DNA of 64,000 nucleotides, taken from contig OY759599.1 in the NCBI GenBank assembly GCA_963662465.1, positions 3,616,001 to 3,680,000 of the forward strand. The letters run 5' to 3'. Positions 15,001 through 24,000 of the stretch are shown piece by piece. The stretch's first letter is position 1; every line of letters begins with the position of its first letter. The DNA comes from Desulfatiglandales bacterium. Its GTDB lineage: Bacteria; Desulfobacterota; DSM-4660; Desulfatiglandales; Desulfatiglandaceae. The position numbers were made by a program.

Positions 15001-18000
15001 TTCACGTCCCGTAGCCACCAATGACACAGCTGAAGGACGCGCCCTGAACAGAAGGGTTGAGCTGACACCTATGCCGTAAAATCGGTTAGGACACTTTAAA
15101 CCATTAACCACAAACATGGGGATCGGGTACTCTGTTATGTACCCGGTCCCCATGTTATTTTTTATTCACCGTAAACTGCAAATCACAACAGGTTGTTATT
15201 CTTTCGGCCGTACCGAGAGAACTGGACAGGGCGCCTGCCGGACAACGCGGTCCGTGGTTGACCCCACCAGAAGCGACTCCATAACGCTGTGCCCTCGAAC
15301 CCCCAGCACAATCAAATCCACCTCATTCACCACAGCATACTTGGTAAGCTCATCGGAAGGGTGTCCCGCCAGAAGCAGTGTTTCCGGGATACACCACTGT
15401 TTTGCATCCTCGGGTACCATATCTTCAAGCTTTTGGGTCAACTTCTCTCTCAATCCTTCCCGACCGGAATCGGACGCCCCCGCCGTCGAGGACAACATGT
15501 CTTTATAAATCCTCGGCTCCAGCACATGCGCCAGATACAATTCCGCTTGAAATTCCTGGGCCAGACTGAGCCCATACTTCACCGCCAGATCGGAATCGGC
15601 GGAAAAGTCACACCCCACCAGAATCCTTTTGAGTTTTATCTCTGCCGTAACAGGCGCCGCCGGCTCCCGTTCCAAACTCCGCACAATATACATGGGACAG
15701 GGGAGTGTTCGCATTAAGCGCTCCGTCACGGATCCCAGGATCAGCCGCTTCAATCCGGAACGGCCGTGGGTAGCGGAAACCACTAGATCGGCGCCCTTTT
15801 CTTTGGCAATCATAGCAATTTCATCGGCCGTATGCCCCACGGAGGTCAGTGATTCCCAAATGATATCCGTATCTCCAATCAAATCTTCCAGATGCTTGTG
15901 CGCATAATCGGTAATTTTGGATTCCAGCATCAAAGGATCCGAGAATCCCTCCCCGTACATGGCAACAGAAGACAAATCAATTACATGACACAAATAGAGC
16001 TTGGCGCCGAACTCCTTGGCCAGGGCAACGCCAAAAGGGACGGCGCGGTTTGAAAAATCTGAAAAATCAGTGGTACAAACAATTGTTTTAATATCAATTT
16101 TCATAGCTCAATACCTCCTTTCTCGTTGTTTCTCATAACAGAATTTCTTTAAACTAAAAAACCCCGCAAAAATCTAAGCAACCGACAATTCTCCATTCGG
16201 GAACCACCGGTTGCCGAAGCCACCCTTAACTGAAAAAACATTCATTTGCCTAAAAGCAACCCTTTGCCCGCAACAACACAGATCCCATGGCCGCAGGCGC
16301 TACATTTCATGATAAACCGGTTTTTTCATTTCTGAAAAAGGGAAATTATAAAAGACATTATGCCCATCATAATCCATTACCCGTAAATCATCTGACTGTT
16401 TGAGATCGCCCATGACCACCTCAAAATGCTTGCCGTATTTTTTCTTGACACTTTCGATCGGAACCTCGGAGGCAATAAATTTCTTAATCCCCTTGGCCGC
16501 TAGTTTTCCCACAAATTTTTCATCGTCAAAAGATGCATAACTGGTTAAAATCAGTATCGGACCTGTTCCTCCAAAAATAATACCCGCTATCATGACAATT
16601 CCTCCTTTCAATAGTTAAGGGCGGCGGTTTCCCGTATCTTTTCGTGGACGGCTTTAATCCAACAGCCTTCCGAATATCCGGTTTCAGCGAAGATCCTACC
16701 ACAAAATCCAGAATTGCACTTATATAGAGCATCCCATCAGGGAATGAGGGCCAGCCAGAGGATAAATGTCCCCGAGGAAATGATGGTGCAAAGAGAAATG
16801 GCCGCATTGGCAAAATCCGGATCCCCCTTCATTTCCTTTGCCATTACATAAGTGACGGTAGCAGTGGGGGATGCCAGCAGAATAATCCCCGGCAAATAAT
16901 CCACGGCTATTGACTAAAGACATGATCTGAAGTATAAAAACGGATTTTATTCATTCTGTTCAAGGGTGTATTTTTAGCGGTTTTATTCAGCCATAACAGG
17001 TCTACATCACTAAGGGACCGGAAACAGTCAGGGGATTTTGATGACTTGGAAAGAAAGGGCATATTGCGGCGCGTTGACCGCTTTAGATGCAGGGAAATCA
17101 GTGCTGCTCATGGGCTGGGTCGATGCCATACGGGACCATGGCAACATTCTTTTTTTTCATATGAGGGATGTGCGCGGCATTGTTCAGGTGGTTTTTGATC
17201 CGAAAGAAGACAGCGCGTTTATAATGCAGCATCCCTGATACGCGAAGAGTATGTGATTGAGGTGCGAGGCCGGGTGACCCTGAGGCGAAAAGACGCCCTG
17301 AACCCCGCCCTGCCGACGGGTCAAATTGAAGTATTGGCCACGGGGTTGAGAATATTGGCAAAATCAAAAACCATGCCCTTTCAGATCAGTGAAAAGGCCA
17401 TGGTATTCGGCGAGGAGATTCAAGCCGGCCCCGAGAATGTGGATGAAGAAATAAGGCTCAGATACCGATACCTGGATCTTCGCAGGCCTTCCGTACAGGA
17501 CACCTTTATTAAACGATACCGGATCATCAAATGTATTCGAGATTTCCTGGATCCCTTAAACTTCATTGAAATCGAAACCCCTTTTCTGACCCGAAGCACC
17601 CCTGAAGGGGCAAGGGATTACCTGGTTCCCAGTCGGGTTCATCACGGAAAGTTTTATGCCCTGCCCCAATCGCCGCAACTGTTTAAACAACTGCTCATGA
17701 TCGGCGGCATGGACCGATATTTTCAGATTGCACGATGCTTTCGCGATGAAGACCTGCGGCCCAATCGACAACCGGAGTTTACCCAACTGGACCTGGAGGC
17801 TTCCTTTATTGACGAAGAATTCATCTATGAAACCATTGAAGCATTGATCGTCCAAATGTTTGCCATCGGCGACATAGCACTTCAAAGGCCCTTTCCCAGG
17901 ATGACTTACGAGACAGCCATGAATCTTTATGGAACGGACCGGCCGGACCTCCGTTTTGGTATGGCTTTTGTGGATGTAACGAATATTTTTCAGAACACCG

Positions 18001-21000: not shown

Positions 21001-24000
21001 AGGCGAAAAAGTAACCACGGAAATATCAGAGCAGGAAAAACCAGACACTTTTACCGACAATAAAAAAGTCGCTAAGCGTGGCGGCGCCGTTGCGGGTAAT
21101 GCTAGAAAAGACACGGAAAAAGAATTGGGAAGAAGTATTGTTTCTGAAGAAAATTATTTGTCGGATCAATTACCTAATAATAGGCAAAATAAGCTGAGCA
21201 ACAAGTGAACGCTACGAAGCTGAGCAACAAGTGAACGCTACGATTATGAACTTGCCTGGTTTCCATACTCCGGTGTGGGCGCCCATAGATATGTACGCAT
21301 TCCCACGCTAGAGCGTGGGAACGAGAAAAGCTAACGGCTAAAATCTCAGGAATAACAACCATGGAATACGATGCCATTATTTGCTTTGAAACACACGTTG
21401 AACTGAAAACCAAAACGAAACTGTTCTGCGGTTGCCGGGTGGCTTACGACATCCCTCCCAACACCGAAATCTGTCCGGTTTGTACGGGACAACCGGGCGC
21501 CCTTCCCGTTCTCAACAAAAAGGCCGTGGAATACGCCGTTCGTGCGGGCCTGGCCCTTGATTGCAGCATCAACCGGCGATCGCGGTTTGCCCGAAAGAAC
21601 TATTTCTATCCCGATTTGCCCAAAGGGTATCAAATCTCCCAGTATGAACTGCCCTTTTGTGAAAACGGGCATCTTGAAATCACGGGAGACGATGGAAAGC
21701 CCTACCCCGTCGGCATCAAACGAATTCATTTGGAGGAGGATGCCGGGAAACTGGTGCATTCATCTGATTCCTTTGACGACGCCGACTACAGCCTGGTGGA
21801 CTATAATCGCAGCAGCGTACCGCTCCTTGAGATCGTGGGAGACCATGAACGAAATCCCCTACGTTCCATTCCGGAAGCCCGGGCTTATCTGGATAAGTTG
21901 AAACAGATTCTCCGATACATCGGCATCAGCGACTGCAAAATGGAAAAGGGACAGCTTCGTTGCGACGTAAACCTCTCCATGCGCCCCGTGGGGAGCCGAG
22001 AATTCGGCAACCGGACCGAAGTCAAAAACATGTCCTCCTTCCGATTCATGATGGAAGCGCTGGAATACGAAATGAAGCGGCAGGTGGAAATCCTGGAATC
22101 CGGCGGCGCCATTGACCAGGAAACCCTCCTTTTTGATGAAATAAAACGCATCACCCGTCCCATGCGAAGCAAGGAAAATGCTCCGGACTATCGCTATTTC
22201 CCAGACCCGGACCTGCTGGAGGTAAATCTCGAAGCCCCATTTATTCAAGACATTGAAAAGGCGCTGCCTGAACTGCCGCACCAGAGGATCAAGCGGATCA
22301 TGGATGAACATGGCATTCCCAAGGACGATGCCTTGATCCTGACCAAGGACAAAGGGACATCGGACTATTTTTCCGCCTGCGTTCCCCATTGCCGGAATAC
22401 CAGGAAGCTGAGTCATTGGATCATCAAGGAGCTTTTCCGCCTTCTCAAAGAAGCATCCCGCACCATGGAAGAATGTCCGGTCCAACCGAAAGACTGCGCA
22501 CAACTGGTCAACCTGGTGGATCAAGGAGAAGTAACCCCTGGAATCGGCAGAGAAATCCTGGACGACATGTTTAAGACCGGACAAGATCCCAAAACCATCA
22601 TTGATCAAAAGGGTTTGAAACCCATCCAGGACGACGACCGGCTGGAAACCTTTCTGGATGAAGCCATAAACGAAAATCCCAAGGTGGTTTCCCAAATCAA
22701 GGAAGGGAATCTAAAACCCATTGACTTTCTGGTGGGTCAGGTCATGAGAAAAAGCAAAGGCAAAGCCAATCCCAAGTCGGTCATCCAATTGATTCACCGG
22801 AAGCTGGACGTATAAAACGGTTTACAGTTACCGGTTCACGGTTGAAAATGCGAAACCCCCGCCCCAACCGAGCCCTTTCCAAGACCATCAGATATGGGGG
22901 CTATCTCCTTATCCTTCTCTTCATGGTGTTAACAAACGCCTGCATCGACAAGGATGAAATTCTCCGGGAAGGCGCCCGCATCAGTATTCCCGGGGACGAC
23001 ATCGTAATGTCCGGCATTCTCTATAGCCCCGATGATCCCGGCAAAAGTGATCCTGCCATCGTGGTTCTCCATGGCTGGCTGGAGCCCGAGGAAAACGGCG
23101 CGGAAATCGTCAGCATCGTGGCCTGGCACCTGGCCAGGGAAGGTTATGTAACACTGGCCCTTTCCATGCGTGGATGGCCCGACACGGGGGACAAAGACGA
23201 TTGCGGTGGAAAACAACCCGTTGATGTAGTCGAGGCGGTCCGGTGGCTTTCCCGACAACCCGGCGTCAATCCCAACCGCATCGGTCTGCTGGGGTTTTCC
23301 CAAGGGGGACAGGTAGCCCTTCTAGCAGCAGCCCTTACCCGGGAAATCAAAGCCGTTGTGGCCTTTTTTCCCGTCGCCGATCTTAACCGCTGGGCCCAAA
23401 CCACCCAAACCCCAGGCATCAAAGAGGGATATATTCCCAACGTCTGCGCCAAAGGACTGGGATTGAAAGCGAAATCCCCCATAACCGCTGCCTGCGCCAT
23501 TGACGCACCCACATTGCTGATCCACGGGGACCAAGACACGCGGGTTCCCATGGATCAGAGCCTCGAAATGGCAAAAGTCATGCTGGATTGCGGCGGAAAG
23601 GTTCAGCTTCAACTGGTTAAGGGTGGCGAACATATGCTCAAGAAAGGGCACGAGGGATGGATTGAGGCTTGGGAGCAAGCAAAAGCGTTCTTAGGAGAAC
23701 ACCTCAAACAAATGCCGCCTCAAAAACCGATAAAAGCTGATGGTAAGGGAGCGGACAGGTGAAGTGCCGCATTTCATGAGGATGCGACGTTGGCCATCCG
23801 GTCCAATACCAGAACCACCAAAAAACCAACCCCCACCAGGCAAAGCGCGTAACCCACCTCCAGGCTCCATTGGGTGGGAAGGATATTGTGTTGGACAAGG
23901 GGTACGACCTTTCCCCCACTGCCCACGAAACTTTCCACGGTTTCCTTAAAGGGCCAGATCTTTCGCAGGGACCCCAGCATCAATCCAGTCAGGAAAGCCA

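Follow-up and report, generated by a model that had tools for sequence, protein, structure and literature searches.

Within a window of 64,000 nucleotides from a Desulfatiglandales bacterium (contig OY759599.1, 3,616,001 to 3,680,000; positions below count from the first letter of this stretch), we find a three-gene operon composed of aspS2-gatC, gatA and gatB, whose first gene encodes a second aspartyl-tRNA synthetase (AspRS) and the amidotransferase subunit GatC as one polypeptide. The assembly breaks the frame of this gene, which most likely runs unbroken through 723 aa in the living organism. We consider it probable that the operon, with its first gene intact and the frame break an assembly error, supplies a non-discriminating AspRS2 that is tethered via GatC to GatAB and serves a dispensable route to asparagine. 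This reading builds on the architecture, the gene order, the intact catalytic motifs, the distribution among relatives and the discrepancy between the reads and the assembly, all of which were observed directly. A tethered Asn-transamidosome had been proposed in the genome-wide survey's note, and it is the most reasonable reading of the sequence.

The fused gene and its operon

As assembled, aspS2-gatC consists of two frames on the same strand, which become a single frame of 723 aa once the read-supported base is added (Table 1). Frame A holds the N-terminal half of the OB anticodon-binding domain (PF01336), including the RDHG motif, while frame B, open from 17199 to a stop codon at 19209-19211, bears the tRNA-synt_2, GAD and GatC domains recognized by Pfam. 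The synthetase is assigned to the bacterial type by TIGR00459 (638 bits, cut-off 373.85) and NF001750 (690 bits, cut-off 443). The GatC domain is matched over positions 1-66 of the 66 in the PF02686 profile and over positions 1-93 of the 93 in TIGR00135 (104.1 bits, cut-off 47.1), and a Pfam search of the whole 8.16-Mb genome at E<=1 returned this single match to PF02686. The survey's note had described a second bacterial-type AspRS joined covalently to the only GatC of the genome, and the Pfam and NCBIfam matches bear out both parts of that description.

Table 1. Positions of the operon, its domains, the frame break and the inserted segment in the window.
Feature	Position	Strand	Evidence
aspS2-gatC fusion gene (AspRS with C-terminal GatC)	17041..19211	+	NF009460 888 bits; TIGR00459 638 bits; TIGR00135 104 bits
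Frame A piece: start codon and first ~59 codons, then out-of-frame run to TGA	17041..17238	+	PF01336, 36.5 bits
One-base discrepancy; assembly without a C that read-derived contigs put behind 17215	17213..17220	+	DNA alignment of relatives; Logan contigs
Class II catalytic core (tRNA-synt_2)	17442..18761	+	Pfam, 394.8 bits
Bacterial GAD insertion (PF02938) within the catalytic core	~18012-18296	+	Pfam, 55.6 bits
Variable low-complexity linker from AspRS body to GatC, predicted disordered	18744..18914	+	Undefined consensus; low pLDDT
GatC domain, sole one in the genome	18975..19190	+	PF02686, 84.2 bits; TIGR00135
gatA	19216..20676	+	TIGR00132, 621.8 bits
692-nt insertion in the gatA-gatB spacer	20655..21346	+	Missing in 6/6 relatives compared
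Bro-N domain ORF, 182 aa, within the insertion	20660..21208	+	PF02498, 8.7e-11; phrog_15286, 1.2e-57 (annotated function unknown)
Two tandem copies of a 25-nt unit (period 26) across the Bro-N stop codon	21193..21243	+	Direct sequence reading
10-bp inverted repeat	21300..21321	+	Near-identical copies at two further genome sites
gatB, full length	21361..22815	+	NF004012, 624 bits; TIGR00133, 539 bits

A linker of some 30-55 residues, predicted to be disordered, runs from the C-terminus of the AspRS to GatC. The two motifs that flank it lie 61-69 residues apart in 102 homologues, and in the AF2 monomer model of the homologue P0002 pLDDT falls below 50 at residues 569-625; the mean pLDDT of this model is a moderate 69.3 and, being of a single chain, the model is uninformative on the complex.

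Downstream, gatA starts 4 nt past the stop codon of the fusion gene and retains the amidase-signature motifs AVKD, GGSSGGS and TDTGGSIRQP when aligned to 3h0l and 4wj3_A. Both gatA and gatB, which the survey's note had likewise placed 3' of the fusion gene, match their NCBIfam models over the full length and above the cut-offs, and the order aspS2-gatC, gatA, gatB is found in all six relatives compared.

All four Pfam families are carried by 118 of the 120 best database homologues, the two exceptions being P0001, which is the shortened product of the window itself, and P0028; the earlier count had been 117. The top-scoring NCBIfam family is NF009460/PRK12820, named 'bifunctional aspartyl-tRNA synthetase/aspartyl/glutamyl-tRNA amidotransferase subunit C', with which the present protein shares a four-part single chain of ~723 residues: an OB anticodon-binding domain, a class II core, GAD and GatC on one polypeptide. 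The model of 723 positions aligns over 76-723 to the frame-B product and over 18-723 to the intact homologues P0002, P0056 and P0096; however, scores of 888 bits for the window product and 978-1015 bits for the intact homologues stay below its curated cut-off of 1379 bits. These scores under a strict cut-off account for the plain 'aspartate--tRNA ligase' names of PGAP style, and the UniRef name of one member, P0105, is 'Multifunctional fusion protein'. The AspRS-GatC fusion is therefore not new, being a database-catalogued, unstudied arrangement. In the searchable literature we found no experimental paper describing the fusion or any NF009460 member, so that the earlier statement that it is not described stands for papers, but not for the architecture, which was already curated.

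Distribution in the order and specificity of the second AspRS

In a sample of 101 genomes of the order (at least 90% complete, this genome included), GatC is present in 70. The open frame that holds it is at least 411 aa long in 65 of these and at least 650 aa in 60; in four genomes GatC is of standalone size, and in one a contig end cuts it. GatB is present in 71 of the 101 genomes and is also absent from 26 of the 31 that have no GatC, which lends some order-level support to the idea of dispensability put forward in the survey's note, though not to loss in this strain. Since asnS and glnS each occur in 98 of the 101 genomes, the module is unneeded for Gln decoding and not strictly needed for Asn. 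The genome itself encodes, as had been noted, a canonical AspRS, AsnRS, GlnRS and AsnA, together with three AsnB-family genes; with AsnA and the three AsnB-family genes at hand, the cell has no evident need to make Asn on tRNA. A hand cross-tabulation of relatives that are not independent of one another shows AsnA to be only modestly more frequent where GatC is absent (18/31) than where it is present (23/70). The pattern in the order bears on the old question of why bacteria with a complete set of synthetases retain GatCAB: GatC usually occurs as the fusion, AsnRS and GlnRS are nearly universal, and roughly one genome in four lacks the module altogether.

Work by Bernard et al. in 2006 reportedly gave the His of the R-D-H-G motif in the anticodon-binding domain a role in tRNA-Asn recognition. 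In the fusion family the R-D/N-H-G motif is found in 119 of the 119 homologues that possess an N-terminus. The same position is occupied by His in chains to which the PDB gives the name Asp/Asn ligase (4wj3_M, 5w25, 5gro) and by Leu in E. coli AspRS (1c0a/1eqr) and in the canonical AspRS of this genome, a comparison of only three Asp/Asn-ligase chains with a single E. coli sequence. A second determinant of non-discriminating AspRS, a loop Gly, does not tell the two AspRS paralogues of this genome apart. The single tRNA-Asn (GTT) has a U1-A72 pair and tRNA-Asp has G1-C72, as predicted by aragorn; the passages of PMC4206432 that treat the matter give U1-A72 as the pair required by bacterial GatCAB.

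If the AspRS2 part is non-discriminating, it would load aspartate onto tRNA-Asn; the GatC tail would join GatA and GatB, keeping the amidotransferase on the synthetase; and Asp-tRNA-Asn could then be converted into Asn-tRNA-Asn without release. The view of the module that we favour is that of a dedicated pathway to asparagine, tRNA-dependent and dispensable, a role we infer from its parts. GatC and GatA form the textbook pair, and GatC could here be fused to AspRS perhaps because GatCAB has no Gln duty in this organism. The C-terminus of GatC is free in the fusion; its fusion to GatA perturbs the enzyme, according to passages of PMC7541841. We raise more tentatively the possibility that, in this order of sulfate-reducer-like bacteria, the fused AspRS2 is dedicated to tRNA-Asn and acts only in cis with a glutaminase-competent GatAB, as a two-step, tRNA-based asparagine synthase that would provide a conditional route of nitrogen assimilation beside AsnRS; if this is true, the covalent tether would be the natural answer to the instability of bacterial-type transamidosomes.

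It seems to us unlikely that the gene, though intact, encodes an ordinary discriminating paralogue or a non-translational protein, to which GatC is fused only for stoichiometric expression or stabilisation of GatAB, with no channelling of Asp-tRNA-Asn. Such a reading is compatible with the similarity of the fused AspRS to PDB sequences, which is equal for discriminating and non-discriminating AspRS (6hhv 526 bits, 1eqr 517, 4wj3_M 515), and with the dispensability of the module within the order. However, the His of the non-discriminating type is invariant throughout the family, against Leu in the co-resident canonical AspRS, and it is AspRS specifically that is the fusion partner in 65 of the 70 GatC-bearing genomes. 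Moreover, in a cell with GlnRS, GatCAB would be left without an obvious substrate unless some AspRS makes Asp-tRNA-Asn.

Comparison with known transamidosomes

PDB 4WJ3 is the non-covalent P. aeruginosa complex of non-discriminating AspRS, GatCAB and tRNA-Asn. A tethered transamidosome of the kind we propose would share with the Asn-transamidosomes of P. aeruginosa and H. pylori a bacterial-type AspRS with GAD, the His of the non-discriminating type, GatA, GatB and GatC, and a tRNA-Asn with U1-A72; in those two organisms the subunits are separate, whereas the present GatC forms one chain with AspRS, in a genome that also has AsnRS and GlnRS. Passages of PMC3367201 report that Asn-transamidosomes of the bacterial type are dynamic and of lower stability, and call the H. 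pylori complex dynamic, which offers a reason for tethering the parts covalently. Structural and kinetic studies of channelling could draw on this natural single chain of AspRS and GatC as the basis of a stable bacterial Asn-transamidosome.

The AspRS2 and GatCAB of Thermus thermophilus and Deinococcus radiodurans (PDB 3KFU) resemble the present system in that a second AspRS stands beside the canonical one and both AsnRS and GlnRS are present; there GatCAB serves Asn only, according to parts of PMC4206432 and PMC2330236. Their second AspRS is, however, archaeal-type, without GAD and unfused, whereas ours is bacterial-type, has GAD and is fused, and they have neither AsnA nor AsnB, while this genome has both kinds. 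In aspS-gatCAB operons of the Clostridium acetobutylicum type the genes are controlled by a T-box leader; here a search of both strands over 14500-24000 gave 0 matches to Rfam families at E<=1, and no T-box leader was found.

The frame break and the Bro-N insertion

Aligned with the DNA of nine relatives, the assembly is one base short around 17213-17220. In the Logan contigs of runs X1 and X2 the extra C is present at a depth of 31.8 of 31.8 and 53.6 of 53.6, and the related metagenome run X3 carries the identical base at 26.6 of 26.6; X1 and X2 are one sample, not mutually independent and possibly the source of the assembly itself. Over 16700-17400 the X1/X2 contig has 0 substitutions relative to the window and a second indel, CAAT behind 16719; differences confined to indels are consistent with consensus errors. 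The read contigs were compared over 16700-17900, and contigs can mask minority variants such as a deletion-bearing sub-population. With the extra C in place, the restored gene is identical to P0002 at 668 of 723 residues (92%) with no gaps. In ten of ten genomes of the same genus the gene is intact, with residues 1-723 matched (1-676 in one, 2-723 in another) and no stops. We conclude that the break most likely reflects one base dropped in error from the assembly, not gene decay. The 1-nt frameshift reported in the survey's note is thus present in the assembly near 17215, but does not hold as biology; that note had itself raised the possibility of an assembly error, and the missing base is what the read-derived contigs hold at full depth.

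A real frameshift, with the module decaying in this strain through redundancy, seems to us likewise unlikely. At most a 652-aa product could then arise from an internal GTG at 17253, which would miss half the anticodon-binding domain yet could still supply GatC. The break does stand in the deposited sequence, AsnRS, GlnRS, AsnA, AsnB-family genes and a canonical AspRS are all encoded in the genome, the module is absent from about a quarter of the sampled genomes of the order, and the operon is interrupted by a Bro-N gene. However, in the only runs with full identity to this segment the missing base is present throughout the contig depth, and the 2.2-kb gene has no second lesion, its match to P0002 being gapless. 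Because the read contigs restore the 723-aa frame and the gene is intact throughout the genus sample, and with gatA and gatB of full length and the catalytic motifs of GatA kept, we find no support for the earlier statement that the module is being lost here.

Programmed -1 ribosomal frameshifting or transcriptional slippage that tunes the output of full-length fusion is highly improbable: the downstream frame is indeed the -1 frame, the two frames have 40 nt in common (17199-17238) and there is a run of T8 60 nt upstream, but the T8 run is not the site, since conserved sequence stays in frame A beyond it, no X XXY YYZ slippery heptamer was found at the junction, the gene is single-framed in all ten same-genus genomes, and in the read contigs the DNA itself is in frame.

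The architecture is already catalogued, and the frameshift, the only feature that sets the window apart, most likely arose as an error in the assembly; what the locus offers in practice is therefore mainly a corrected annotation. The Bro-N gene that had been reported between gatA and gatB is indeed there, as its PF02498 match attests. It is a lineage-specific insertion in the spacer with no evident tie to the pathway, and the inserted segment has replaced the final few codons of gatA.

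Architecture of the fusion operon

All relevant genes of the interval 17041-22815 lie on the + strand, and their coordinates are collected in the table. In the second, bacterial-type AspRS gene, frame B matches PF00152 at 394.8 bits (class II catalytic core) and the bacterial GAD insertion at 55.6 bits, and it ends in a complete GatC domain (79.4 bits to PF02686). The top NCBIfam family of the fusion product, at 888 bits over model positions 76-723, is NF009460/PRK12820, named 'bifunctional aspartyl-tRNA synthetase/aspartyl/glutamyl-tRNA amidotransferase subunit C'. The product also exceeds the NCBIfam cut-offs for aspS_bact (638 bits) and for gatC (104 bits over the whole 93-position model). 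These Pfam and NCBIfam matches bear out the arrangement described in the genome-wide survey's note, a second AspRS fused to GatC with gatA and gatB downstream, and the Bro-N gene that the note placed between gatA and gatB is likewise present.

Features of the fusion operon in window coordinates
Feature	Position	Strand	Description
Frame A	17041-17238	+	ATG start; about 59 residues of the OB-fold anticodon-binding domain (PF01336, 36.5 bits); ends at TGA
Frame B	17199 to stop 19209-19211	+	remainder of the OB-fold anticodon-binding domain, PF00152, GAD, GatC
gatA	19216-20676	+	begins 4 nt past the fusion gene stop; full length, above NCBIfam cut-off
Bro-N ORF	20660-21208		182 aa; Bro-N domain; match to phrog_15286 (PHROG function unassigned)
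gatB	21361-22815	+	full length, above NCBIfam cut-off

The linker between AspRS and GatC is variable in sequence among homologues and is predicted to be disordered, with pLDDT below 50 at residues 569-625 of an AF2 monomer model; the GatC helices (632-668) reach a pLDDT of about 75-82 in this model, which with a mean of 69.3 is a moderate one only. GatC and GatA are a textbook pair. The tether enters at the N-terminus of GatC; a passage of PMC7541841 reports that fusing the GatC C-terminus to GatA perturbs the enzyme.

In all six relatives examined, of which two belong to the genus, three more to the family and one to a different family, gatB follows within about 10-120 nt of gatA and there is no Bro-N homologue. 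Homology to the closest relative ends at 20654 and restarts at 21347; therefore, we recognize a 692-nt insertion (20655-21346) by which the last few gatA codons were replaced. The insertion contains two tandem 25-nt units spanning the stop codon of the Bro-N ORF, as well as a 10-bp inverted repeat with copies at two further genome sites. The ORF has three mutually identical paralogues (46% amino-acid identity) at genome positions ~55114, 7086159 and 8112514, and we see no link between the Bro-N gene and the asparagine pathway. An Rfam scan of 14500-24000 (E<=1) gave no match to a T-box or to any other leader RNA family, and a simple scan of 16100-23000 counted 10 promoter-like sites versus 6.2 expected and 8 terminator-like sites versus 10.2 expected, with no terminator-like site within the insertion.

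The apparent frame break

Aligning the window with the DNA of nine relatives, we observed that it is without one base at about 17213-17220, in the codon preceding a conserved Tyr codon; this codon is TGC, AGT, AGC or GGT in the relatives versus two letters in the window. A run search showed that X1 and X2, two runs of one sample, contain 95% of the words sampled from 16700-17900. Over 16700-17400, their read-derived contig of 3522 nt (at depths of 31.8 and 53.6) shows no substitutions; set against the window it has two insertions, CAAT behind 16719 and C behind 17215, the latter present at full contig depth in both runs; this comparison covered 16700-17900, the single sample is perhaps the assembly's own data, and contigs hide minority variants. 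A contig from X3, a related metagenome run, likewise carries the C behind 17215 (26.6 of 26.6). Adding this base yields a single frame of 723 codons, identical to the 723-aa homologue P0002 at 668 of 723 positions with no gap, and with a junction like that of the relatives. Moreover, when matched to the 723-aa protein, the fusion gene is stop-free in all ten same-genus genomes, the matches extending over 1-723 in eight, 2-723 in one and, at a contig end, 1-676 in one.

That the read-derived contig differs by indels only fits consensus errors of the assembly, and we consider the frame break very probably an assembly artefact. The note had read the frameshift as a sign that the fusion gene is decaying; this is in all likelihood wrong, since read-derived contigs restore the frame and its counterparts within the genus are intact. 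Programmed frameshifting was rejected, because the same-genus genes are in one frame and the read-derived contigs have the extra C, as was the T8 run at 17150-17157 as a slip site, because the conserved sequence carries on in frame A past it.

The CAAT discrepancy is a second indel less than 500 nt from the first and sits in the long AT-richer spacer 5' of the operon (16105-17040, GC 0.42-0.43). A further, related organism is also present in X1 and X2, at roughly half the depth; it differs at about 10-16% of letters over the compared pieces of 16750-17400 and has about 1 kb of other sequence replacing 16908-17021. The sample is thus no single-strain pure culture. In a near-complete 2-contig genome of the same family, the open frame around GatC is only 578 aa long (G471:C1:3768896-3769111), which may stem from a comparable break, or an assembly indel, in the fusion gene.

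Distribution and earlier description

Of the best 120 homologues, which are 66-100% identical, 118 have all four Pfam families. Among 101 genomes of the order, each at least 90% complete and including the present one, GatC occurs in 70, lying within an open frame of 411 aa or more in 65 and of 650 aa or more in 60. Frames shorter than 650 aa are mostly at contig ends; GatC is of standalone size in four genomes and cut by a contig end in one. GatB is also absent from 26 of the 31 genomes that have no GatC, so the whole module seems to be missing there. The window copy is an ordinary member of the form dominating its order. Phylum-wide, GatC was present in 385 of 401 sampled genomes, and five matches fell in long frames among 150 listed of 390.

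A library clustered at 50% identity returned at least 150 matching proteins, among those listed one full-length fusion representative, P0121 (710 aa), which aligns with positions 2-722 of the fusion query, through the GatC part, and has no Pfam GatC match at 1e-5. A GatC domain occurs in two fragments, P0183 and P0258; the remaining 147 listed matches align via the AspRS part, and six other long proteins scanned gave no GatC match at E<=1e-5. With one representative and two fragments among the matches listed, the fusion family is thus compact at 50% clustering, in a search that did not reach the clostridial AspRS-GatC fusions. The AspRS representatives also included a protein with a C-terminal YbaK-like tRNA_edit domain (P0178, 744 aa) and a HisRS-AspRS fusion (P0123, 1029 aa). 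One order genome has a second, weak GatC match of 27 bits (G434:C96:34243-34440), which lies within a 711-aa frame, and the same contig carries a second GatB close by; the two may represent a divergent extra copy of the module.

The fusion is of a known but uncharacterised kind. The note had called it undescribed, which holds for the literature insofar as our full-text searches found no paper on an AspRS-GatC fusion, only an artificial aspS-gatCAB operon. The architecture is nevertheless catalogued: it is a curated NCBI family, NF009460/PRK12820, although the window protein and its intact homologues fall below the strict cut-off of that family, and one fusion homologue is named multifunctional fusion protein in UniRef. 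No solved structure spanning both the AspRS and GatC parts was among the 60 PDB chains listed. The passages of a 2014 survey (PMC4206432) that give three deltaproteobacteria with aspS=1 and gatCAB=1 do not mention a fusion.

A putative tethered route to Asn-tRNA

The window belongs to a single 8.16-Mb contig, and whole-genome profile matches confirmed the note's inventory of a sole GatC alongside canonical AspRS, AsnRS, GlnRS, AsnA and AsnB. There is one GatC match (E<=1) and one GatB; the canonical AspRS (603-aa frame) adjoins hisS, and LysRS, EpmA, two GluRS, one AsnA and three AsnB-family genes above cut-off are also encoded. The AsnA and AsnB-family genes speak against a strict need for the fused module. 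Across the order, asnS and glnS each occur in 98 of 101 genomes, with or without the fusion, so GatCAB here has no Gln duty and is not strictly required to decode Asn. AsnA is found only modestly more often without GatC (18 of 31 genomes versus 23 of 70 with it), a weak trend in hand-counted, non-independent relatives.

The His of the R-D/N-H-G motif is present in all 119 fusion homologues having the N-terminus and in three PDB chains named Asp/Asn ligase, and Leu takes its position in E. coli AspRS and in the genome's canonical AspRS. Work by Bernard et al. in 2006 reportedly found that this His matters for recognition of tRNA-Asn. GatA retains the Lys, cis-Ser and Ser motifs when aligned to 3h0l and 4wj3_A. 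The sole tRNA-Asn has U1-A72, a pair that bacterial GatCAB requires according to a passage of PMC4206432. The near-universal presence of AsnRS and GlnRS, the His seen in structures of non-discriminating (ND) AspRS, U1-A72, the GatA motifs and the predicted disordered tether at the GatC N-terminus together point to a tethered ND-AspRS/GatCAB. We hypothesize that such a complex would form Asn-tRNA-Asn with Asp-tRNA-Asn never released, and that the module would give the cell an optional way of making asparagine on tRNA. A passage of PMC3367201 calls bacterial-type Asn-transamidosomes dynamic. The logic resembles that of Thermus and Deinococcus, as outlined in passages of PMC2330236 and PMC4206432, but here the synthetase is bacterial-type and fused.

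Elsewhere in the genome, there is a 4-nt overlap between hisS and the canonical aspS, and the two GluRS paralogues, both bacterial-type, lie at C1:1470936-1472435 and C1:2830773-2832176 (492 and 550 bits to TIGR00464). A 70-nt tRNA-Glu(CTC) call at C1:5475638-5475707 has its 3' half in common with the full tRNA-Glu(CTC) at 5430214 and an unrelated 5' part, and probably represents a truncated tRNA or a pseudo-tRNA. The genome also encodes a tRNA-SeC.
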